Positions 5,037 through 47,156 of a stretch of 64,000 bases of DNA are shown piece by piece. Source of the stretch: an uncultured delta proteobacterium. GTDB lineage: Bacteria; Desulfobacterota; Desulfobacteria; Desulfobacterales; B30-G6. The stretch lies in the NCBI GenBank assembly GCA_963823335.1, contig CAWGLD010000004.1:96001-160000 (forward strand), in the 5' to 3' direction. Every line of letters begins with the position of its first letter. Position 1 is the stretch's first letter. The translations under genes were made by a program, and so were the position numbers. The notes under the pieces were generated by a model. It searched no databases. It was not told where the DNA came from and worked only from the letters and a program-made list of their open reading frames with translations.

Positions 5037-5190
5037 ATGAACATCGAACGTCCAACGTCCAACATCGAATTTTGAATGGGTAAGAATGAAGAAACAGACT
5101 TATTCTTTAGATAGAAAAACCGCTCGATTTTTCGACATTGTCTTTATTCTTTTCATTCGACGTTCGATGTTCGATGTTCGATGTTCATCT
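5037..5190 (+). mobile_element. Family A (heptamer-arm) cassette, internally deleted copy A1
   Basis: Left arm ATGAACATCGAACGTCCAACGTCCAACATCGAATTTTGAATG; right arm TTCATTCGACGTTCGATGTTCGATGTTCGATGTTCATCT; the interior resembles the 5' end of the gene at 20948. Confidence 0.85.
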
Positions 5191-9064: not shown

Positions 9065-9221
9065 AAAGATGAACATCGAACATTGAACATCGAACGTCCA
9101 ATGCTGAATGCAAAGAAAAGTTCAATATTGAATAATTAAGCAGTTTTTCCAAGACATACACCTGTTTCTTCATTTACCCCATTCAAAATTCGATGTTGGA
9201 CGTTCGATGTTCGACGTTCAT
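9065..9221 (-). mobile_element. Family A cassette, deleted copy A2; its ATG overlaps the cysS stop codon
   Basis: The minus strand reads ..GAC AAA TGA ACGTCGAACATCGAACGTCCAACATCGAATTTTGAATG..ATGAAGAAACAGGTGTATG; the opposite arm is at 9065-9109. Confidence 0.85.
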
Positions 9222-10666: not shown

Positions 10667-10744
10667 ATGTGTTATCTTTCTAAATAGTTATTTGTGATAC
10701 CATTATAAGTGCTTATCAACTTCTTGGGTGACTATTCTGAGTCA

Positions 10745-10900
10745 GGGTTTGAGGGGTGGAGGGGTGCGGCTTGCAGGATAATAGACAATAAACTGTATAT
10801 TACTAAACACCTAATAGTCTGCTGTCTACTACTTGTTGTCCGGGTATACCCTCCAACCCATCAAACCTCCAACCCTCCAACCCTTCAATCCTCCAACCCT
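10745..10900. repeat. Inverted octamer arms (GGGTTGGA / TCCAACCC family) overlapping the ispF 3' end
   Basis: GGGTTTGAGGGGTGGAGGGG at 10745 and ACCCTCCAACCCATCAAACCTCCAACCCTCCAACCCTTCAATCCTCCAACCCT at 10848-10900. Confidence 0.65.
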
Positions 10901-11385
10901 TCCTTAAGCAGTGCCACACACATGGCACCAATCCCTTCGCCTTTTCCAAAACAACCAAGTCCCTCATGTGTCGTGGCCTTAACATGCATACATGTGGCCG
11001 GAACCTCTAATGCATCGGCCATGTTCGACTGCATCTCATCCAAATAGGGTGCGAGCCTTGGTGACTCCGCTATGATAACGGCATCGGCATTCATAAGTGA
11101 AAAACCGTTCTTTTCCAAAAGACGCCCGGTCTTTCTCAACAAGTGAAGACTGGACACGTCTTTGTACTGCGGGTCTGTATCGGGAAAGAGCCGGCCGATA
11201 TCTCCCAAATGTGCGGCTCCCAGCAATGCATCGATCACCGCATGAATCAGCACATCCGCATCTGAATGCCCCAGCAACCCTTTTCCATAGGGTATATCGA
11301 CACCACCCAGTACCAGTTTTCTTCCCTGGGTCAATTGATGTACATCATAACCCATGCCGATTTTTATCACAGATAAAATCCTCAC
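10885..11385 (-). CDS. ispF: 2-C-methyl-D-erythritol 2,4-cyclodiphosphate synthase
   Basis: IGMGYDVH, GHSDADV, GDIG and KATT motifs. Confidence 0.95.
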   Translation of the reverse strand: MRILSVIKIGMGYDVHQLTQGRKLVLGGVDIPYGKGLLGHSDADVLIHAVIDALLGAAHLGDIGRLFPDTDPQYKDVSSLHLLRKTGRLLEKNGFSLMNADAVIIAESPRLAPYLDEMQSNMADALEVPATCMHVKATTHEGLGCFGKGEGIGAMCVALLKEGLED

Positions 11386-17203: not shown

Positions 17204-18877
17204 ATGGACTACTTCAGTATTCTGAATTTAAATAAAGAACCTTTTTCCAATTCTCCGGACCCAGATTACTTTTTCAACTCCCAGCAGCATGTCAGCTGCC
17301 TACAGAAACTGGAATTGTCCTTGCGGCTCAGACGGGGGTTGAATGTGGTTATCGGGGAAGTCGGGACCGGGAAAACGACCCTCTGCCGCCAGCTTCTGCG
17401 ACGGTTTTCCGATGACAGTGAAATCGAGTCACATCTAATCCTAGATCCCCATTTCAGCACGCCCCATGAGTTTCTGCTGGCCGTGACGGAAATGCTCACC
17501 CATGAAAAACACGCCGAAAATATCGATGACTACAAACTGAAAGAACACATCAAAAACACCCTTTTCACCAAAGGCGTCGATGAAAACAAAACCGTTATTC
17601 TCATCATCGATGAAGGCCAGAAAATTCCGATCTTTTGTCTCGAATTACTGAGAGAGTTTCTCAATTTTGAAACAAACGATTATAAATTGCTTCAGATCGC
17701 AATTTTTGCCCAGAGAGAATTTGACAATACTCTCAAAAAACATGCCAATTTCGCTGACCGGATAAATCTCTACCACCTGCTGAAGCCGATGAATTTCAGC
17801 GATACACGCGCCATGATCCAGTATCGTCTGAACCAGTCGAGCGCTGCGGCAAAACGACTTGCCCTGTTCACCTACCCTGCCCTGTGGGCTATTTACCGAG
17901 CCACGAATGGCTATCCGCGTAAAATTGTCAACATCTGCCACCGCAGCATTCTGACGATGATCATTCAGAATAAAAGCAAAGCCAACTGGTTTTTGGTTCA
18001 ATCGTGCATACGAAGGGTCTTTTCTTCCGGGAAAAAACGATCATGGCAATTTGCAGCCATTCTCATTATTGTTCTCCTCGGTACCATCTTCACCATCCCT
18101 AGATGGCTTCCAAATCAGACCACAACACCCTTTTTAAAAGAAACCGAAGCTTCCAGAGAAACCGATACCGTGTCCATGAACCCCGGGCCGGCAGCCCCAC
18201 CCTTGACAAACGTTGGCTCGGATACCATCGTAACTTCCAATGCCAATGCGACTCCGCAAACAGATGTACCCGTCATGCCGGACACGTCAAACCTGTCAGG
18301 AGACGTCCCTGAAACCCCGGATAGAGCCCAGCTGCAGGCTTCTGTCACCAGCGTTTCAGATGTGACACCTCCTGAAATACACGAAGTCCCCGGAGTACTG
18401 GGACAAATTAAAGTCAAGCGGCATGAGACCCTCGGTGGACTCATCCAGACAATTTACGGGGCTTTCCACAAGACCCATCTCCAGTCTGTCCTCCGGATCA
18501 ACCCGCACATAAAAAACCCGGACACCATCAGCATAGGTGAAGTGATCCTTTTCCCGGCCATTGCTTCCCATGTGGAAGAGCCGCCATTGAAACGATGGTG
18601 GGTTCAAATTGCCCAGGAGGATACCCTGGAAGCCGTTTTCATGTTTTTACGCCAGCACACCACCGTCGCTCTTTCCGCACGTCTGGTCCCACATTGGAAC
18701 CGTTCTTCAGGACTTCAATTTTCAGTGCTTCTTAGCCAGCCTTTTTTTGATGAGGCTTCAGCTGTCAACAAGCTTGAACATCTTCTTTCAAGCAGCGGTA
18801 CAAAAGCAGGGATCGTTTCCGATTGGGACTCACACACTGTTTTTTATGCAAATCCTTATCAAAACACGAACACGTAA
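17204..18877 (+). CDS. ExeA/MshM-like AAA ATPase with TM and LysM/SPOR-like C-terminus
   Basis: PFSNSPDP, GEVGTGKT, LIIDEGQ and GYPRKIVNIC; LysM-like ETL..IYG..INPHIKNPDTI. Confidence 0.8.
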   Translation: MDYFSILNLNKEPFSNSPDPDYFFNSQQHVSCLQKLELSLRLRRGLNVVIGEVGTGKTTLCRQLLRRFSDDSEIESHLILDPHFSTPHEFLLAVTEMLTHEKHAENIDDYKLKEHIKNTLFTKGVDENKTVILIIDEGQKIPIFCLELLREFLNFETNDYKLLQIAIFAQREFDNTLKKHANFADRINLYHLLKPMNFSDTRAMIQYRLNQSSAAAKRLALFTYPALWAIYRATNGYPRKIVNICHRSILTMIIQNKSKANWFLVQSCIRRVFSSGKKRSWQFAAILIIVLLGTIFTIPRWLPNQTTTPFLKETEASRETDTVSMNPGPAAPPLTNVGSDTIVTSNANATPQTDVPVMPDTSNLSGDVPETPDRAQLQASVTSVSDVTPPEIHEVPGVLGQIKVKRHETLGGLIQTIYGAFHKTHLQSVLRINPHIKNPDTISIGEVILFPAIASHVEEPPLKRWWVQIAQEDTLEAVFMFLRQHTTVALSARLVPHWNRSSGLQFSVLLSQPFFDEASAVNKLEHLLSSSGTKAGIVSDWDSHTVFYANPYQNTNT

Positions 18878-18882
18878 AAGAA

Positions 18883-19162
18883 GGATTCAAGGATTCCAGG
18901 GGTCCAGGGTTCGAGTGAGATGAAGTGAGGCATCAGCTAAATGCTTAAAAATTGTAAAGAGTTAAAAGTTGTGGATTGGAAACACAGACGATGATATCCG
19001 GTGTTTTGGATTATATGAACAAGAAAAAGCTTCAGGGATTAAGAGAGGAGCTTGGGGATGTAGAGAGAATGCTAAAAGCGATGATCAAATCCCTGGAAAA
19101 CAAACACTTCAATCCTTGAATCCTGGACTCCTTGAACCCTTTCTCCCAACTTGTTGGGAGAA
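18883..19162 (+). mobile_element. Family B (octamer-arm) cassette B1 carrying a deleted four-helix-bundle gene
   Basis: Left arm GGATTCAAGGATTCCAGGGGTCCAGGGTTCGAGTG; right arm CACTTCAATCCTTGAATCCTGGACTCCTTGAACCCT followed by hairpin TTCTCCCAACTTGTTGGGAGAA. Confidence 0.8.
18941..19119 (+). pseudogene. Four-helix-bundle (23S-IVS-protein/S23-like) gene remnant
   Basis: MLKNCKELKV joined out of frame to LETQTMISGVLDYMNKKKLQGLREELGDVERMLKAMIKSLENKHFNP*; the middle of the gene is absent. Confidence 0.75.
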
Positions 19163-19193
19163 GAACTAAAGAATAAAACAAGCGAGATAAACT

Positions 19194-20906
19194 GTGAAAA
19201 CAAAAAAGAAGTTTGGAGAAATGCTCATGGAGGCCGGGTTGCTGAGCGAAGATCAGCTAAAACAGGCCATCATCGACCATAAACGAACGAACATGAAACT
19301 GGGACAGTATCTTGTTCGTGAGGGAATTGTCAGCGGATCTCAGGTGGTCGATATAATATCAAAACAGCTGAAAATAAAAAAATACAACCCTGACGACTAT
19401 CCCGTCGATATCGAGCTCTCCAAAGTAATACCCCTGGAACTTGCCCAGAAATTCCAGGCCGCGCCATTAAGAAAGAGCAAATTCCTCCTGACCCTCGCAA
19501 TGACCGATCCCATGGATATTACCGCACTCGATTCCATCGAAGTTTACACCAATACGGAAGTTGAAGCGGTTATCTCAACATACCAGGAGCTCAACCACTT
19601 GATCGGCAGCCTGTATGGCACCTACTCCGGCATCGATGGTGTTCTTGAAGGCATGCAGGATATGCAGATTGAAAGAGATGACGATGAAGACACGTCACGG
19701 GCGGCCATCGAAGATATCGAGGTCAGCTCCCTGCAGGACATGGCCGAAGAAGCGCCGGTTATACGTCTCGTCAACTCGATTCTTTCCCAGGCAGTCAGGG
19801 AGGGCGCCAGTGATGTCCATATCAGCCCGGAAAAAGATTATGTCCAGGTGAGGTTTCGGGTTGACGGCAAACTTCATGAACTGCCGGCGCCACCCAAGAC
19901 CATGATATTACTTATCATATCAAGACTGAAGATTCTCTCCAACATGGACATCTCGGTTTCGAGAATTCCCCAGGATGGACGTTTCACCATCAAAATGGAT
20001 GAAAAGGAAATCAACATCCGATCGTCCACCATCCCCACTATTTATGGGGAAAATATGGTCTTGCGACTTCTTGACACAAGCGGCGGGGTGCACTCTCTTG
20101 AAGAACTGGGAATGTCCATGGCTGATATTCGCAAACTTGAACCCATGATCCACAAACCCTATGGCATGATTTTGAGCACCGGACCCACGGGTAGCGGCAA
20201 GAGTACGACACTTTATTCAATCCTCAAAAGGATCAATCAGCCCGATATCAATATTATCACCATAGAAGACCCGGTTGAATACCGTATCAACAAGATCAGA
20301 CAGATCCAGCTCAACCGAAAAGCCGGGATGACTTTCGCAAGCGGACTGCGTTCCATCATGCGGCAGGATCCTGACGTCATCATGGTCGGCGAAATCCGGG
20401 ATCCTGAAACTGCCTCGATTGCCGTTCAGTCAGCTCTTACCGGCCACCGGGTGCTGAGCACGGTTCATACAAACGATGCCGCCGGTGCCATTACGCGCTT
20501 TATTGACATGGGCATCGAACCTTTTCTGGTTTCTTCGGTAATGCTTGTATCCATCGCACAACGCCTCGTCAGGAAAGTTTGCCCTTACTGTAAGAAACCC
20601 CACACCCCGCCGGCCTTGGCACTGGAATACTGGGGTCTCAACCACGCAGAAAATCCAAATTTCATGCAAGGCAATGGATGTTTTAACTGTATGGACAAAG
20701 GGTATAAGGGAAGAATCGGTGTATATGAAATCCTTATAATCGATGAAATGGTCCAGGATATGATTCTCAAAAGAAATTCATCTCAGGAAATAGCCCGTGC
20801 AGCTATTCAGGCAGGGACATTGAAAACACTCAGGGATGACGCCGCAAAAAAGATTCTCCAGGGTATTACGACCATTGAAGAAGCTGCATCAGCGGTGATC
20901 GTATAG
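19194..20906 (+). CDS. pilB: Type IV pilus assembly ATPase (PilB/GspE family)
   Basis: MshEN-like start KFGEMLMEAGLLSEDQL, ASDVHI, GPTGSGKS, EDPVE, MRQDPDVIMVGEIRD and a tetracysteine motif. Confidence 0.93.
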   Translation: MKTKKKFGEMLMEAGLLSEDQLKQAIIDHKRTNMKLGQYLVREGIVSGSQVVDIISKQLKIKKYNPDDYPVDIELSKVIPLELAQKFQAAPLRKSKFLLTLAMTDPMDITALDSIEVYTNTEVEAVISTYQELNHLIGSLYGTYSGIDGVLEGMQDMQIERDDDEDTSRAAIEDIEVSSLQDMAEEAPVIRLVNSILSQAVREGASDVHISPEKDYVQVRFRVDGKLHELPAPPKTMILLIISRLKILSNMDISVSRIPQDGRFTIKMDEKEINIRSSTIPTIYGENMVLRLLDTSGGVHSLEELGMSMADIRKLEPMIHKPYGMILSTGPTGSGKSTTLYSILKRINQPDINIITIEDPVEYRINKIRQIQLNRKAGMTFASGLRSIMRQDPDVIMVGEIRDPETASIAVQSALTGHRVLSTVHTNDAAGAITRFIDMGIEPFLVSSVMLVSIAQRLVRKVCPYCKKPHTPPALALEYWGLNHAENPNFMQGNGCFNCMDKGYKGRIGVYEILIIDEMVQDMILKRNSSQEIARAAIQAGTLKTLRDDAAKKILQGITTIEEAASAVIV

Positions 20907-20912
20907 AAACTA

Positions 20913-21390
20913 ATGAACATCGAACATCGAACGTCCAACATCGAATTTTGAATAAAAAGATAAAGAAACAGGCGTATGATCTGGAAGAAAGGTTGCTCGA
21001 GTATTCGGTGAGAATCGTAAAACTCGTTGAACAACTTCCAAATACCAAGGCAGGCAGTCATATTGCGGGGCAATTGTTAAGATCTGGAACTTCACCATAC
21101 CCAAATCATGGTGAAGCTCAGGCAGCGGAATCCCCGAAAGACTTTATCCATAAATTACGTATTTCATTAAAGGAACTCAGGGAAACCCAGCGATGGTTAA
21201 AATTAATACAGCGAGTACCACTAATTAAAAAGCCTGAACTATTGAAGGATATTATCGAGGAAACTGAAGAATTAATTAAGATTTTCGTCGCGAGCATTAA
21301 AACTGCGGAAAAGAGAAAGAGATAATTCATTATTGTTTGTTTTTCATTCGACATTGGACGTTCGATGTTCGATGTTGGACGTTCATCTTT
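20913..21390 (+). mobile_element. Family A cassette, full-length copy A3: inverted heptamer arms enclosing a four-helix-bundle gene
   Basis: Left arm 20913-20951, gene 20948-21325, right arm 21343-21390; sits between pilB and pilC. Confidence 0.85.
20948..21325 (+). CDS. Four helix bundle protein (TIGR02436 / 23S rRNA IVS protein / bAvd-like family)
   Basis: YDLEERL..IVKLVEQLP..QLLRSGTS..NHGEAQAAESPKDFIHKLRISLKELRETQRWL..ETEELIKIF is the family pattern; 125 aa. Confidence 0.9.
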   Translation: MNKKIKKQAYDLEERLLEYSVRIVKLVEQLPNTKAGSHIAGQLLRSGTSPYPNHGEAQAAESPKDFIHKLRISLKELRETQRWLKLIQRVPLIKKPELLKDIIEETEELIKIFVASIKTAEKRKR

Positions 21391-21423
21391 AAATAACCAA
21401 GAAAACCCAACAAACAGGTTATT

Positions 21424-22647
21424 ATGCCGACATATTCATACCAGGCCATTAACGAATCCGGTTCCACTGTCACCGGTGAGGTCGAAGCCGAATCCACGGA
21501 CATGGCCAACAACATTCTTTCCGCCAGGGGGTACCTGCCATCACGGGTGGTTGAAAAGGGTCAGATAGTACCCAGTGATTTTAGCAAACAGCTCAGAGAA
21601 CGCTTCACATTCATCAAACCGCCTGAACTGATACTCTTTACCAAACAGTTCAAGACACTTATTAAAGCGGGTATACCCATCTTGAAAATTTTTAAGGTCA
21701 TTGAAAATCAGACCGAAAACATTGTCTTAAAAGATATGGTCCTGTCTATTTCGCAGGATGTACAGCAAGGGTCCAGTCTTCATGACGCGTTCCGGAAACA
21801 CCCCAAGGCCTTTTCGCCTCTTTACTGCAGCATGTTGCGCGCTGGGGAAGCCAGCGGGGCATTGCCGGAGATACTGGAACGTCTGATTTATATCCTCGAA
21901 CATGAGCACAAGATAAAGTCCGAGATTCGGGCAGCGCTTTCTTATCCCATCATCGTTATTTCCTTTTTAGGCATCGCTTTTTTTGTTCTCCTGACCTTTG
22001 TCATTCCTAAATTTGTCACGATTTTCGAAAGATCGAGTGTCGCACTCCCGCTGCCGACACAGATCTGCATGCTGATGTACCAGGTTCTTGCCAATTACTG
22101 GCTGATAATGCTCGTTGGTCTCATTGGCGGCATCGTATTTCTGAACTACTATTTAAAAACCGAACAGGGGCTTTTGGCCAAAGACACCTTACTGATGCGT
22201 CTTCCTCTCTTAGGACCACTTTTTGCAAAAGCCGCCATGGCAAGGTTTGCGAGTATTTTCTCTATCCTGCAGGCCAGTGGTGTTCCCGTCCTCGACTGCA
22301 TTCGCATTTTAACGGAAACCATTGGGAATCAGGCTATTTCAAAAGAATTCGCCCTTGTAACAGAACGTCTTGAGGAAGGGCGTGGACTGGCGGAGCCATT
22401 GAAATCCGCTAAGTATTTTCCGCCGATTGTCATCAATATGATCGCCATCGGAGAAGAATCGGACAACCTCGAAGACATGCTCAACGAAATTGCGTTGCAT
22501 TACGATTCTGAACTCGAATATGCCATGAAAAAACTGTCCGAGGCCCTCGGACCTTTATTGACACTCGGGCTGGCAGTTGTGGTCGGTTTTTTTGCCCTCG
22601 CGATCTATCTGCCCATGTGGGATATGACCAAGATGAGCGGATTATAA
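21424..22647 (+). CDS. pilC: Type IV pilus platform protein (PilC/GspF family)
   Basis: MPTYSYQA, FTKQFKTLIKAGIP, AGEASG, ALSYP and IYLPMW. Confidence 0.92.
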   Translation: MPTYSYQAINESGSTVTGEVEAESTDMANNILSARGYLPSRVVEKGQIVPSDFSKQLRERFTFIKPPELILFTKQFKTLIKAGIPILKIFKVIENQTENIVLKDMVLSISQDVQQGSSLHDAFRKHPKAFSPLYCSMLRAGEASGALPEILERLIYILEHEHKIKSEIRAALSYPIIVISFLGIAFFVLLTFVIPKFVTIFERSSVALPLPTQICMLMYQVLANYWLIMLVGLIGGIVFLNYYLKTEQGLLAKDTLLMRLPLLGPLFAKAAMARFASIFSILQASGVPVLDCIRILTETIGNQAISKEFALVTERLEEGRGLAEPLKSAKYFPPIVINMIAIGEESDNLEDMLNEIALHYDSELEYAMKKLSEALGPLLTLGLAVVVGFFALAIYLPMWDMTKMSGL

Positions 22648-30190: not shown

Positions 30191-31012
30191 ATGAACATCG
30201 AGCATCGAACGTCCAACATCGAATTTTGAATGGGAAAAGATGAAGAAATGGGCCAATGATCTTTAATAAAGTCCGCTTGACTATTCGTCGGTATTGTTTT
30301 TTTCTTTTCATTCGATGTTGGACGTTGAATGTTCGATGTTGGACGTTCATCTTTTAAATCTTTACTTTGGCATAAATGCAGTTTGTACTTGATATGCCAA
30401 TAGATACGATCGATTTTTTGTAAAACGTCATTGTTTTATCGCTTGGGAACCAATGAACGTCGAACATCGAACGCTCAACATCGAATTTTGAATGGGTATA
30501 AATGAAGAAACAGGTGTATGTTGAATGGGAAAAGATGAAGAAATGGGCCAATGATCTTTAATAAAGTCCGCTTGACTATTCGTCGGTATTGTTTTTTTCT
30601 TTTCATTCGATGTTCATCTTTTAAACCTTTTTTGATTCATCATTGGACGTTCGATGTTCGATGTTCGATGTTCATCTTTTAAATATTTACTACGGCATAA
30701 ATACTGTTTGTACTTGATATGCCAATAGATACGATGGATTTCTTGTAAAATGTTAATTGTTTTAAAGCCGGGGAACCAATGAACATCCAACATCGAACGT
30801 CCAACATCGAATTTTGAATTTAAAAGATGAAGAAACAAGTATATGATTTCCTGTCATTCCCGTGTGTTTGCTCCTTAGCAGGAATGGGACGAGAGTCCAG
30901 TGGACACTATATATGCACGGCTTACCCGAATTTTTTAAGAAGTTGCTAACTTCAGCATTAAATATTTCTTTTCATTCGACGTTGGATGTTCGATGTTGGA
31001 CGTTCATCTTTT
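30191..31012 (+). mobile_element. Tandem array of three deleted family A cassettes (A4 30191-30355, A5 30453-30680, A6 30779-31012) separated by a duplicated ~97 bp linker
   Basis: Three left arms and four right-arm ends; linkers 30356-30452 and 30681-30778 share GGCATAAAT..TTTGTACTTGATATGCCAATAGATACGAT..GGGAACCA. Confidence 0.85.
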
Positions 31013-33219: not shown

Positions 33220-33393
33220 GGTCCGAGGGTTCAAGGGTGATACAAGGGTTCGAGGGTAGCTGACGGCTATCGGCGGAGAGCAGCATCCCAGCCTCCGGGC
33301 GTTCCAGCATGCAAAGATGCAAGGACAAGCTATAAACCAGCGGCTATAGACTGTTAGCCGCCTACAGCCTAACAGTCTATCAGTCTAACAGCC
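33220..33393. repeat. Patchwork of short tandem-repeat arm fragments
   Basis: GGTCCGAGGGTTCAAGGG..GGGTTCGAGGG directly after the stop codon, then CAGCATCCCAGCCT..CCAGCAT and CCTACAGCCTAACAGTCTATCAGTCTAACAGCCT. Confidence 0.6.
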
Positions 33394-33471
33394 TCCCGTT
33401 AGGCAAAGCCTGTGGGATTAAATAGAGCGGCAAGACCGCGCTTCATAAAATTGCGGAGTGATTTTATTATT

Positions 33472-33651: not shown

Positions 33652-33980
33652 ATGATGAACGTCGAACATCGAACGCTCAACATCGAATTTTGAATGGAGA
33701 GATGAAAAAACAGATGCGGGACTCGGGTTTAACTATTTCTTTTTATTCGACGTTGGACGTTGGATGTTCGATGTTGGACGTTCATCTTTAAGATCTTTTT
33801 AAACCCAAATCGGATACCTGCAAGAAAGCTTTATTCAATTGGCATAAATGATACTCCGATAGAAGTTTAAAAATGATGAACGTCGAACATCGAACGCTCA
33901 ACATCGAATTTTGAATGGAAAGATGAAAAAACAGATGCGGGACTCGGGTTTAACTATTTCTTTTTATTCGACGTTCATCT
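33652..33980 (+). mobile_element. Tandem pair of deleted family A cassettes (A7 33652-33789, A8 33873-33980)
   Basis: Near-identical left arms and interiors; the 83 bp linker also occurs at 43231-43427. Confidence 0.85.
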
Positions 33981-34061
33981 CAAGAAAACTTACTACAGCA
34001 AAAATCCTGGCTACTGCTCAGAGCTTACCCTCCGAACCTCCAACCCTACAAACCCCCGACC

Positions 34062-38489: not shown

Positions 38490-38564
38490 TTCTAGATCTT
38501 CTCCACAGCGGTAATATTTTTTTAAATAAGGTTCTTCTCCCAATTGGGAGAAAGAGGATATTTT

Positions 38565-38825
38565 AAAAGATGAACGTCCAACTTCCAACATCGAACGTCC
38601 GGTGATGAGTCAACTACCACCCGTGAAACGGGTGGTTTGTTTTTGCCCCAAAATGGGGGAAAACAAAGGAGACGGCACGTCTCCGTAAGTTCAGGTTCGG
38701 AACCGCGTGCCAAGCACGCGGTTTGTAGAACAATCAAAAAAAATACTAACCCCCAGGTCTCACGCCTGTTTCTTCACCTTTTTCATTCAAAATTCGATGT
38801 TGGACGTTCGATGTTCGACGTTCAT
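38565..38825 (-). mobile_element. Family A cassette A9, interrupted by a 124 bp insert and flanked by family B ends
   Basis: Left arm 38825-38787 and right arm 38600-38565; B arm at 38857-38883 and B hairpin at 38535-38552. Confidence 0.8.
38609..38732. mobile_element. Miniature IS200/IS605-like element (two terminal hairpins, no gene)
   Basis: GTCAACTACCACCCGTGAAACGGGTGGT at one end and AACCGCGTGCCAAGCACGCGGTT at the other; no target duplication. Confidence 0.55.
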
Positions 38826-38883
38826 TTTTTTTACTATTCGAGGTTCGATGTTCATTCCCCGGACCCCTGGAACCCTCGAACCC

Positions 38884-41091: not shown

Positions 41092-41196
41092 ACATATCTC
41101 CTAGGAATAAATTCGTTTTACGAATTTATCTGTTTCTTCATCTTTTTAACCATTCGACAACAGAAATTGGGCCAAAAGACATTTTTTAGATGACTT

Positions 41197-42838: not shown

Positions 42839-42994
42839 ACAGGTCCCCCCTATTTGAATTGGAACAAATCCAAAATTCGGATTTTGTGTTTTGTCTTTCG
42901 TGTTTCGTGTTTGGTGTTTCGCTTTTTGGCGAAATGAAAATTTGAATATGTATAGGACGGGAGGACAATAATCAATATTTTTTTGAGATAAAAG

Positions 42995-43475
42995 ATGAAC
43001 ATCGAACATCGAACGCTCAACATCGAATTTTGAATGGAAAAGATGAAGTAACAGAATCCCGACTTCCGACCTCTGACTTCTGACCTCCGACGCTGAATTA
43101 TGAATGGAAAGATGAAGAAACAGGTGCGTGCCTTTCAATCCCGCGTGTCTGCCCTTTCGCAGAAAGGGGTTAACTGTTTCTTTTCATTCGACGTTGGAAG
43201 TTCGATGTTCGATGTTGGACGTTCATCTTTAAAATCTTTTTAAACCCAAATCGAATACCTGCAAGAAAACTTTATTGAAGAACCGCGCAGCAAGCTACGA
43301 GGAATCTTCGACCGTAAGGAATTCTGTCTAATCTAGATTCGCTCGCTAACCCCGCAGCAAGCTACGGGGAATGCGCTCGCTTTTTCGGTTCAATTGGCAT
43401 AAATGCCACTCCGATAGAAGTTTCAAAATGATGAACATCGAATTATGAATGGAAAGATGAAGAAACAGGTGTATG
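42995..43475 (+). mobile_element. Family A cassette A10 (42995-43230), linker with nested REP-like insert, and partial copy A11 (43428-43475)
   Basis: Arms as in the other copies; A10 contains a different heptamer run CCGACTTCCGACCTCTGACTTCTGACCTCCGAC at about 43059-43091. Confidence 0.82.
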
Positions 43476-46812: not shown

Positions 46813-47050
46813 TTCTCTCAATTAGGAGAAAGGGTTCAAGGAGTCCAGGATTCAAGGGTTCAAGTGTTTGTTTTCCAGGGATTTGATCAACGTTTTTAGC
46901 ACGTTATCTAAATCCTCGATCTTTTCTCTTAATTCTTGAAGTCCTTATAAATATCCAAACAAAGTTTATACAATTTTTACTTAACGTTTAACTCTTCATA
47001 ATTTCTAAACACTCCACTCGAACCCTGGACCCCTTGAATCCTTGAACCCT
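46813..47050 (-). mobile_element. Family B cassette B2 with deleted four-helix-bundle remnant (46852-47012)
   Basis: Arms match B1; minus-strand remnant VFRNYEELNVK*KLYKLCLDIYK / GLQELREKIEDLDNVLKTLIKSLENKHLNP*. Confidence 0.8.
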
Positions 47051-47156
47051 TCATTTTAATCAACTCTTTTGGAGAAGATCTACCTTTAATAATAGAGTTT
47101 TCAAACACAATTTATGTCTAAACAATTATGGTCTTATTAGTAAATAGGAATGCTGC

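Follow-up and report, generated by a model that had tools for sequence, protein, structure and literature searches.

An inverted-heptamer cassette around a four-helix-bundle protein gene in an uncultured delta proteobacterium, probably a non-ribosomal counterpart of rRNA intervening sequences

The 23S rRNA intervening sequence (IVS) of Coxiella encodes the protein S23p and has a 28-bp terminal stem; three tandem GACAGAT heptamers precede its open reading frame (ORF), and RNase III cuts it at the first repeat, according to passages of PMC4990558. The same passages state that rRNA IVSs replace the tetraloops of helices 9, 25 and 45, that Xanthomonas S23p is a homopentamer, and that Ralph and McClelland proposed in 1993 a mobile element whose ORF aids mobility. 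Parts of Rehm et al. 2015 (PMC4692102) describe 70–75 pairs of convergent GGGAATC heptamers in Xanthomonas for which no role is known, and parts of PMC4679880 describe heptanucleotides as the most abundant long simple repeats in most genomes. Here we describe a cassette in which the gene of a four-helix-bundle (4HB) protein of the S23p family is enclosed by inverted arrays of TC(G/C)AAC(A/G) heptamers (the TCGAACA family) between a pilB-like and a pilC-like gene. It lies in a 64,000-nt stretch (the window, contig C4:96001–160000) of an uncultured delta proteobacterium of the Desulfobacterales, whose assembly (GCA_963823335.1) comprises 4.37 Mb in 11 contigs and is 93.9% complete.

We know of no catalytic role for the 4HB (S23p) protein. 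Avd of the diversity-generating retroelements is a pentamer of the four-helix-bundle type and binds both nucleic acid and a partner enzyme. The 4HB family is homologous to Avd, as stated in part of PMC10053308. We consider the cassette to be probably a non-ribosomal selfish element of the IVS type, transcribed with the host operon and folding into a long stem. It would amount to an IVS cassette that has come free of rRNA and has cognate repeat arms, numerous decayed copies and junctions that act as hot spots.

The gene, its arms and its relatives

Both family models recognized the 125-aa product: it matched PF05635 (E 5e-15; 56 bits against a curated cut-off of 33.8) and TIGR02436 (E 7e-26; 90.6 bits against 24). 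The upstream neighbour is a pilB-like T2SSE ATPase (19194–20906) and the downstream neighbour a pilC-like T2SSF protein (21424–22647). The original prediction, made from the letters of the window alone, had placed a 4HB gene between pilB and pilC within inverted heptamer arms, and gene, neighbours and arms were all recovered as follows.

20913..20946 (about), plus strand: left arm, about five tandem TC(G/C)AAC(A/G) heptamers, with ATGAAC at the start
20948..21325, plus strand: 4HB protein gene, 125 aa counted from TTG
21345..21390 (about), plus strand: right arm, the reverse complement of the left arm plus one extra unit, with GTTCAT at the end

The ATG start codon of the relatives (congener G005 and most gene-less copies) reads ATA at 20960–20962 in the full copy, so the ORF of the window starts at TTG, five codons upstream. 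A profile of ten paralogues from this genome matched PDB entries 2GSC (E 1.5e-31) and 2RLD by sequence, each deposited with five chains; 2GSC is the XCC0516 protein.

The best pairing of the two arms covers 31 nt at 94% complementarity. A pattern of two heptamers, with one mismatch allowed, occurred 45 times in the window against 0.38 expected, and none of 100 shuffles reached 45. RNA folding predicts that the arms close off the ORF, in the minimum-free-energy and the centroid structures alike (z −4.1; 0 of 100 shuffles folded as well), which is consistent with the earlier suggestion that they could form a long RNA stem looping the gene out. A long stem of terminal inverted repeats around an S23p ORF, as in an IVS, is thus predicted here, at a site between T2SSE and T2SSF genes and not in an rRNA helix: an Rfam scan of 18500–22000 at E up to 1 gave no match. 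A promoter search at the cassette gave no site above chance, and three paralogues had no match in PADLOC.

A search of the genome with the family model gave 24 4HB matches. An inverted pair of short tandem arrays was detected around 19 of them, arms were found by eye around two more (C7:178061 and C5:488615), and the remaining three comprise one fragment and two arm-less genes in tandem. The repeat unit is specific to the paralogue lineage: it is an octamer of the GGATTCAAG type, the hexamer ATCGGG, or heptamers such as CGTGAGA, GTGTAAG and TTGGTGG. Arrays of period 6–9 numbered 711 in the genome against 35 in shuffles, and among 224 neighbouring pairs 103 were inverted and 23 direct. Unit clusters containing an array that adjoins a 4HB gene account for 293 of the 711 arrays; several large clusters lack a 4HB gene in this genome.

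The two tandem arm-less genes lie outside the window (G000:C4:64008–65538; loci L031 and L116). Downstream, and overlapping, is a 220-aa gene for an ERCC4 plus helix-hairpin-helix nuclease (ERCC4 E 1.9e-25). A structure-specific nuclease of this kind beside the only arm-less genes of the family could act on hairpins in trans.

To survey the family elsewhere, one genome per species was scanned with an alignment of five paralogues, which confirmed at least 596 relatives. The best 80 loci were taken; 76 had enough flank to test, and 264 displaced positions served as controls. Because the five-sequence alignment replaced a ten-sequence one that was too diverse, these 80 loci are relatives of the octamer-family paralogues and not of the window's clade. 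They span Bacteroidota, Planctomycetota, Acidobacteriota, Chloroflexota, Firmicutes, candidate-phyla bacteria, Rickettsiales and others. Inverted flanks, reverse-complementary at 17 or more of 21 positions, were present at 61 of the 76 loci and at none of the 264 controls, and tandem arrays on both sides at 55 of 76 against 1 of 264, which bears out the enrichment of inverted tandem arms that the original prediction led us to look for. The period, compared on both sides at 54 loci, was 7 in 45 and 8 in 7. The arms stood at a median of 20 nt upstream and 14 nt downstream of the gene match, and none of 20 loci checked had an rRNA match. The arm pattern of a Planctomycete cassette occurred 83 times in its carrier genome and not at all in four other genomes. 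Packaging between inverted arrays is a near-universal property of the 4HB gene family across phyla, and the arm sequence is particular to each protein lineage.

The cassette has a preferred orientation. Judged from crude stop-to-stop ORFs, both neighbours run in the direction of the 4HB gene at 46 of 66 surveyed loci and both run opposite at 4. The upstream neighbour of the gene-less TCGAACA copies in this genome was co-directional in 21 of 28, and only one copy lies between divergent genes. The upstream arm, read on the coding strand at 44 loci, had more G than C in 37 and more C than G in 5. These biases in orientation and arm composition fit a constraint on the transcribed strand better than a symmetric DNA end. 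The cassette sits sense-oriented inside operons or just after genes.

Copies in the genome and junctions in relatives

A BLAST search of the genome with the full element gave 148 matches in 48 loci, one of them a full-length copy. Gene-less copies align to it at both ends: on the left through the arm and as much as 60 nt of the gene, and on the right from a point about 35 nt ahead of the arm, with the stop codon included. One copy (C4:79245–79372) retains the last ~70 nt of the gene and another (C6:185085–185167) an internal stretch at 75% identity. The junction motif of arm end, spacer and ATGAAGAAACAG occurs 29 times genome-wide, with the full copy among them. Since the gene-less copies keep both ends of the gene, they are deletion derivatives of the cassette, as the original prediction had proposed from the first codons that they retain. 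Internal deletion leaves gene-less inverted arrays that outnumber intact copies. The following copies lie in the window.

5037..5188, plus strand: gene-less TCGAACA copy between an mdh/ldh-like gene and uvrC; start codon region kept
9068..9221, minus strand: gene-less TCGAACA copy between uvrB and cysS
30191..30350, plus strand: gene-less TCGAACA copy
30453..30675, plus strand: gene-less TCGAACA copy with a second, arm-collapsed copy inside
30779..31007, plus strand: gene-less TCGAACA copy
33652..33785, plus strand: gene-less TCGAACA copy
33873..33985 (end approximate), plus strand: partial TCGAACA copy, right arm collapsed
38565..38829, minus strand: gene-less TCGAACA copy with unrelated hairpins inside; adjoins a small palindrome of the terminal-inverted-repeat (TIR) type
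41127..41157, minus strand: arm-less left-interior fragment with the start-codon region
42995..43232, plus strand: gene-less TCGAACA copy with another heptamer array nested inside
43428..43475, plus strand: left-end TCGAACA fragment with a collapsed arm

Every recurrence listed beforehand exists, and the mdh-uvrC and cysS-uvrB contexts were confirmed. Those at 5037, 9065, 30191, 30453, 30779, 33652, 38565 and 42995 are arm pairs; the ones at 33873 and 43428 are partial, with an arm collapsed or missing, and 41130, listed as a fragment, is an arm-less piece of the left interior on the minus strand.

Many short copies carry other small repeats nested inside. One repeat resembling a repetitive extragenic palindrome (REP), a hairpin of the GCGAGCGC...CCCCGTAGC type of ~40–115 nt, lies within other repeats and in one case has a TTTGAA duplication. 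It was seen at 43290–43400 of the window, at C1:28860–28940 and in the downstream part of four hexamer-family copies. The genome has 8 Y1_Tnp (Y1-type transposase) matches, which might mobilise this repeat.

The pilB-pilC junction differs among congeners. G005 carries the same cassette, with 111 of 122 protein residues identical, and in G008 the spacer is 27 nt. Gene-less inverted arrays of three other unit types occupy the junction in G004 and G002, in G007, G003 and G009, and in G001; remnants of the G004-type arms persist outside the TCGAACA cassette in the window's own genome (G000) and in G005. A 700-nt contig from an RNA-library run (X10) has 82 different letters where the cassette-bearing stretch of 507 nt would be, and its flanks are ~99% identical (7 other letters in about 616 positions); contigs from DNA runs with no differences carry the cassette. 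All four runs consulted were assembled contigs, which show presence only and not RNA ends, strand or level, and gaps in their coverage are meaningless. An octamer-armed sister cassette in the window is cleanly absent from the orthologous site in G004 and G007, with 32 nt left in G005.

18880..19160, plus strand: octamer-armed (GGATTCAAG type) sister cassette, a remnant in which the opening and closing codons of another 4HB paralogue survive
46821..47060, no strand assigned: gene-less inverted pair of the octamer family

Arrays of other units, inverted or single, were also seen in the window at 10700–10905, 33280–33400 and 42874–42930. They are of the GAGGGTG/CCCTCCAA, TAGGCTG and TTTCGTG types, which have no resident 4HB gene in the assembly; congeners carry other families at those junctions.

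TCGAACA-armed cassettes with proteins 68–91% identical were found at other loci in G024, G014 (two), G013, G008 and G025, and the arm sequence and the order of unit variants are conserved among them. Of 31 related genomes, 10 have the cognate gene and 22 the arm pattern; all 10 with at most one arm match are without the gene. G023, which has no cognate gene, has long perfect TCCAACA or TCGAACA runs at many contig ends (831 pattern matches); such arrays can expand like microsatellites and break assemblies.

A junction in Flavobacterium, the site of one of the surveyed cassettes, was compared in 61 genomes and holds a full cassette in 10. Most of the others have 30–200 nt between the two host genes, and seven have 8 nt or less by match coordinates. 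We inspected 16 of these junctions: 10 were full cassettes, two were empty (an A-run of 8–9 nt), three were gene-less inverted arrays and one was another palindrome. Protein clades coincide with arm families, identity being 73–90% within and 39–58% between clades, and the host flanks are 74–79% identical at the DNA level. The other palindrome (L127, one species) is 178 nt long, rich in G/C at its ends and free of heptamers, so inserts of more than one kind are drawn to this junction. At L119, L121, L125 and L126 the arm units look like the final codons of the host gene upstream (GAGAAATTAG against GAGAATT and GAGATTT), a likeness in the sequences that could reflect a target preference or growth of the array into the flank.

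From one related genome to another the cassette is found at different loci, and an orthologous site may be empty, as with the 27-nt spacer in G008, the X10 contig, the sister site in G004 and G007 and the Flavobacterium junction.

These junctions also bear on whether anything moves. The arrays might be host regulatory stems, serving intercistronic processing, stability or termination and evolving in place by slippage, with the gene as an old resident. Most congeners do carry arrays at the same junctions with units that change between species, arrays do grow to long perfect runs in G023, and some arm units look like the closing codons of the gene before them. We nevertheless regard this explanation as very unlikely, since the same arm sequence, with unit variants in the same order, recurs at 48 loci in one genome, and TCGAACA arms flank 68–91% identical proteins at different loci in six other genomes. 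Clean empty sites exist, and five identical copies of another family have target duplications (below). At the Flavobacterium site, moreover, protein identity between clades is 39–58%, against 74–79% at the DNA level for the flanking genes.

The cassette could instead spread by entering the apex of an existing hairpin or older arm pair, or by gene conversion, being copied into gene-less copies through arm homology. The tetraloop sites of rRNA IVSs (as given in passages of PMC4990558) are in line with this, as is the pilB-pilC cassette itself, which lies between remnants of an older arm pair still present in G004 and G002. Different families also occupy the same junction, and copies were seen nested within copies. 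The empty Flavobacterium site, however, is an A-run of 8–9 nt without a hairpin, and we judge this route to be quite improbable.

Terminal repeats, transposases and movement

Two other arm families have the marks of transposition. Five identical copies with hexamer arms have outer TIRs, and all five are bounded by perfect 8-bp AT-rich target duplications. The TIRs of the shells around these two arm families measure ~15–24 nt, and perfect 8-bp duplications were seen for both the hexamer and the octamer family. A shell-TIR motif of the GGCTCTTCTCC type had 224 matches in the genome; among the 40 nearest pairs listed, 13 had 8/8 duplications, and 9 of these 13 perfectly duplicated pairs hold a 4HB match. 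Shells with TIRs and 8-bp duplications in two arm families imply a transposase acting in trans.

Elements of the GGCTCTTCTCC type include C2:12833–13524, C4:31203–31895, C2:127685–128173 and 38530–38560 of the window. Some are bare 31-nt palindromes, and others carry a whole arm-plus-gene cassette. The assembly gave no transposase to match them.

The source of the shells was sought among known insertion sequences (ISs). ISL3 ends begin similarly to the shell repeats and give 8-bp duplications. ISL3 was rejected as their source because the assembly has no ISL3 transposase; IS66 transposases had no match in the assembly either. The one IS256-type element of the genome has inverted repeats of its own that differ from the arms and from the shell repeats. 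No long TIR pair with a duplication was present in the genome among the 40 pairs listed. The arms, then, matched the ends of no IS that we could identify, and since the assembly is 93.9% complete the absence of a parent IS is not proven. With empty sites in relatives and enriched arms around family members elsewhere, this was the last of three outcomes on which the original prediction could have fallen, and it stood on each.

On these data the copies might be miniature transposable elements of an ordinary kind, bounded at the arms or just outside them by the ends of an IS whose transposase is elsewhere or unassembled, and the 4HB gene would be a passenger. The shells and AT-rich duplications of the two other families argue for this, as do the incompleteness of the assembly, IS copies being often unassembled, and the persistence of arms in genomes without the cognate gene. 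Many TCGAACA copies also have further conserved sequence outside the arms. On the other side, the TCGAACA family has neither a target duplication nor a shell repeat in aligned copies or syntenic regions, no ISL3 or IS66 transposase was found and the IS256-type ends differ. A passenger gene would also leave unexplained why 61 of 76 family genes in unrelated phyla have inverted tandem arms of their own, and why sense orientation prevails by 46 to 4. We therefore consider this explanation unlikely.

A diversity-generating retroelement was rejected as well, there being no reverse transcriptase near the 4HB gene. More broadly, the cassette could be retro-mobile, an Avd-like protein and a reverse transcriptase copying the stem-bounded RNA back into DNA. 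The homology to Avd (part of PMC10053308), the co-orientation with host transcription and the strand asymmetry of the arms relative to the gene are compatible with such a route. It is highly improbable all the same, because the assembly has only two reverse transcriptases; both are maturase types of group II introns and lie far away or on other contigs, neither of them near a family gene.

Proposed mechanism and comparison with known systems

We return to the IVS-type element, the reading that we hold to be probable. Its unit is a promoter-less 4HB gene between two inverted arrays of about 4–7 tandem heptamers. Read-through from the host operon would transcribe the cassette, and the arms would pair into an RNA stem of 30–45 bp, as the predicted fold suggests. 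By analogy with rRNA IVSs, RNase III would cut this stem, which would free a small mRNA and make the insertion tolerable. A pentameric, Avd-like protein would recognise its own repeats, with roughly one protomer per unit, and this recognition would stabilise or spread the cassette. The two other arm families would move in their shells by a transposase supplied in trans.

Several observations weigh against this reading. Six copies of the TCGAACA family aligned with their flanks had no target duplication and no shell repeat. A scan for inverted pairs in four syntenic 64-kb regions (26 pairs) gave no clean junction, filled against empty, for this family; the only clean presence or absence among the alignable flanks belongs to the octamer family. 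The alternative states at pilB-pilC are replacements and not simple insertions. The cognate gene is missing from 11 of the 21 related genomes with at least 5 arm matches, including the well-assembled G004 and G007, so arrays persist without the protein, and the related genomes are not independent samples. In the survey, 15 of the 76 loci score like controls and a few have direct arrays in place of inverted ones; the neighbour directions rest on the crude ORFs mentioned above, and the window's own family is in the minority with a C-rich upstream arm. Dispersal varies widely: a Ruminococcus genome has the cassette alone, and an Acidobacteriota genome has about four loci.

The original prediction of a dispersing unit with full-length and miniature forms is supported. 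Many loci, many genomes and empty sites favour it; no target duplication of the TCGAACA family appeared in the six-copy alignment or the four-region scan, and the family offers no clean junction. That the TCGAACA family has moved is inferred from its many loci in many genomes, as compared by sequence, rather than from a clean junction. In sediment metagenomes the summed contig depth of the arms is in the thousands; other organisms contribute to this sum, which should not be read as a copy number.

A bolder extension, which we offer tentatively and consider somewhat unlikely, is a self-contained mobile system made up of the 4HB pentamer and the heptamer arrays cognate to it, without a transposase of its own. 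The protein would recognise its repeats and recruit enzymes of the host, which would insert the cassette at hairpin tips or operon junctions, and decayed cassettes would be the main source of the prokaryotic excess of heptanucleotide repeats, including the Xanthomonas GGGAATC pairs and perhaps the cyanobacterial heptamer repeats.

The 4HB family is very common, as its 24 matches in this genome and its relatives in the species-genome scan attest, and it has been without an assigned function since its discovery in rRNA IVSs. If packaging is its defining trait, the rRNA IVS would be one special landing site of a much wider selfish cassette, and recognition of its own repeats would give the family a role open to testing. 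The proposal, if true, would also supply an origin for a class of so far unexplained heptamer repeats between genes. Such cassettes also break assemblies and reshape operon junctions.

In the literature covered, which excluded most subscription journals, no link of the 4HB family to flanking tandem inverted repeats was found outside rRNA. The architecture had been put forward as that of a candidate undescribed element; this holds for non-rRNA sites in that literature, but the Coxiella IVS already combines the same protein, a stem and heptamers (passages of PMC4990558).

Compared with Avd of the diversity-generating retroelements, the cassette has no adjacent reverse transcriptase, and those retroelements are not known to have inverted tandem arrays at their flanks, as it does.

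With MITEs (miniature transposable elements with inverted repeats) and REP doublets forming hairpins (REPINs), the copies share a short, dispersed and intergenic form, inverted repeats and internal deletion from a longer coding element. Terminal inverted repeats with many dispersed short copies (48 loci) are present, and two of the arm families have TIRs with 8-bp duplications. Unlike MITEs and REPINs, the only protein encoded is the 4HB protein, the arms are tandem arrays and not unique ends, and the bias to sense orientation is strong. Unlike MITEs, the TCGAACA family yielded no duplication in the copies and regions compared, and no parent IS with the same ends was found in the 93.9% complete assembly.

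The Xanthomonas GGGAATC pairs, as described in parts of PMC4692102, share with the arrays an intergenic position, inverted tandem heptamers, tens of copies per genome, transcription and variability between close species. Supplement file 2 of that paper places one GGGAATC repeat across the start of XCC0516 and does not name the 4HB family; 'S23' has no occurrence in the available text and six supplement files. Where those parts of the paper treat quadruplex-forming simple repeats without a 4HB link, the arrays here are traced to cassettes by the gene ends that they retain.

The closest counterparts are the rRNA IVSs with an S23p ORF (23S and 16S, in Coxiella, Leptospira and others). The cassette shares with them the protein family, the terminal-repeat stem around the ORF, tandem heptamers on the 5′ side, sense orientation in the host transcript and a sporadic distribution. 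Unlike them, it lies between protein-coding genes and has dozens of gene-less derivatives per genome, and it belongs to a set of several cognate arm and protein families per genome, some of which are held in shells with target duplications.

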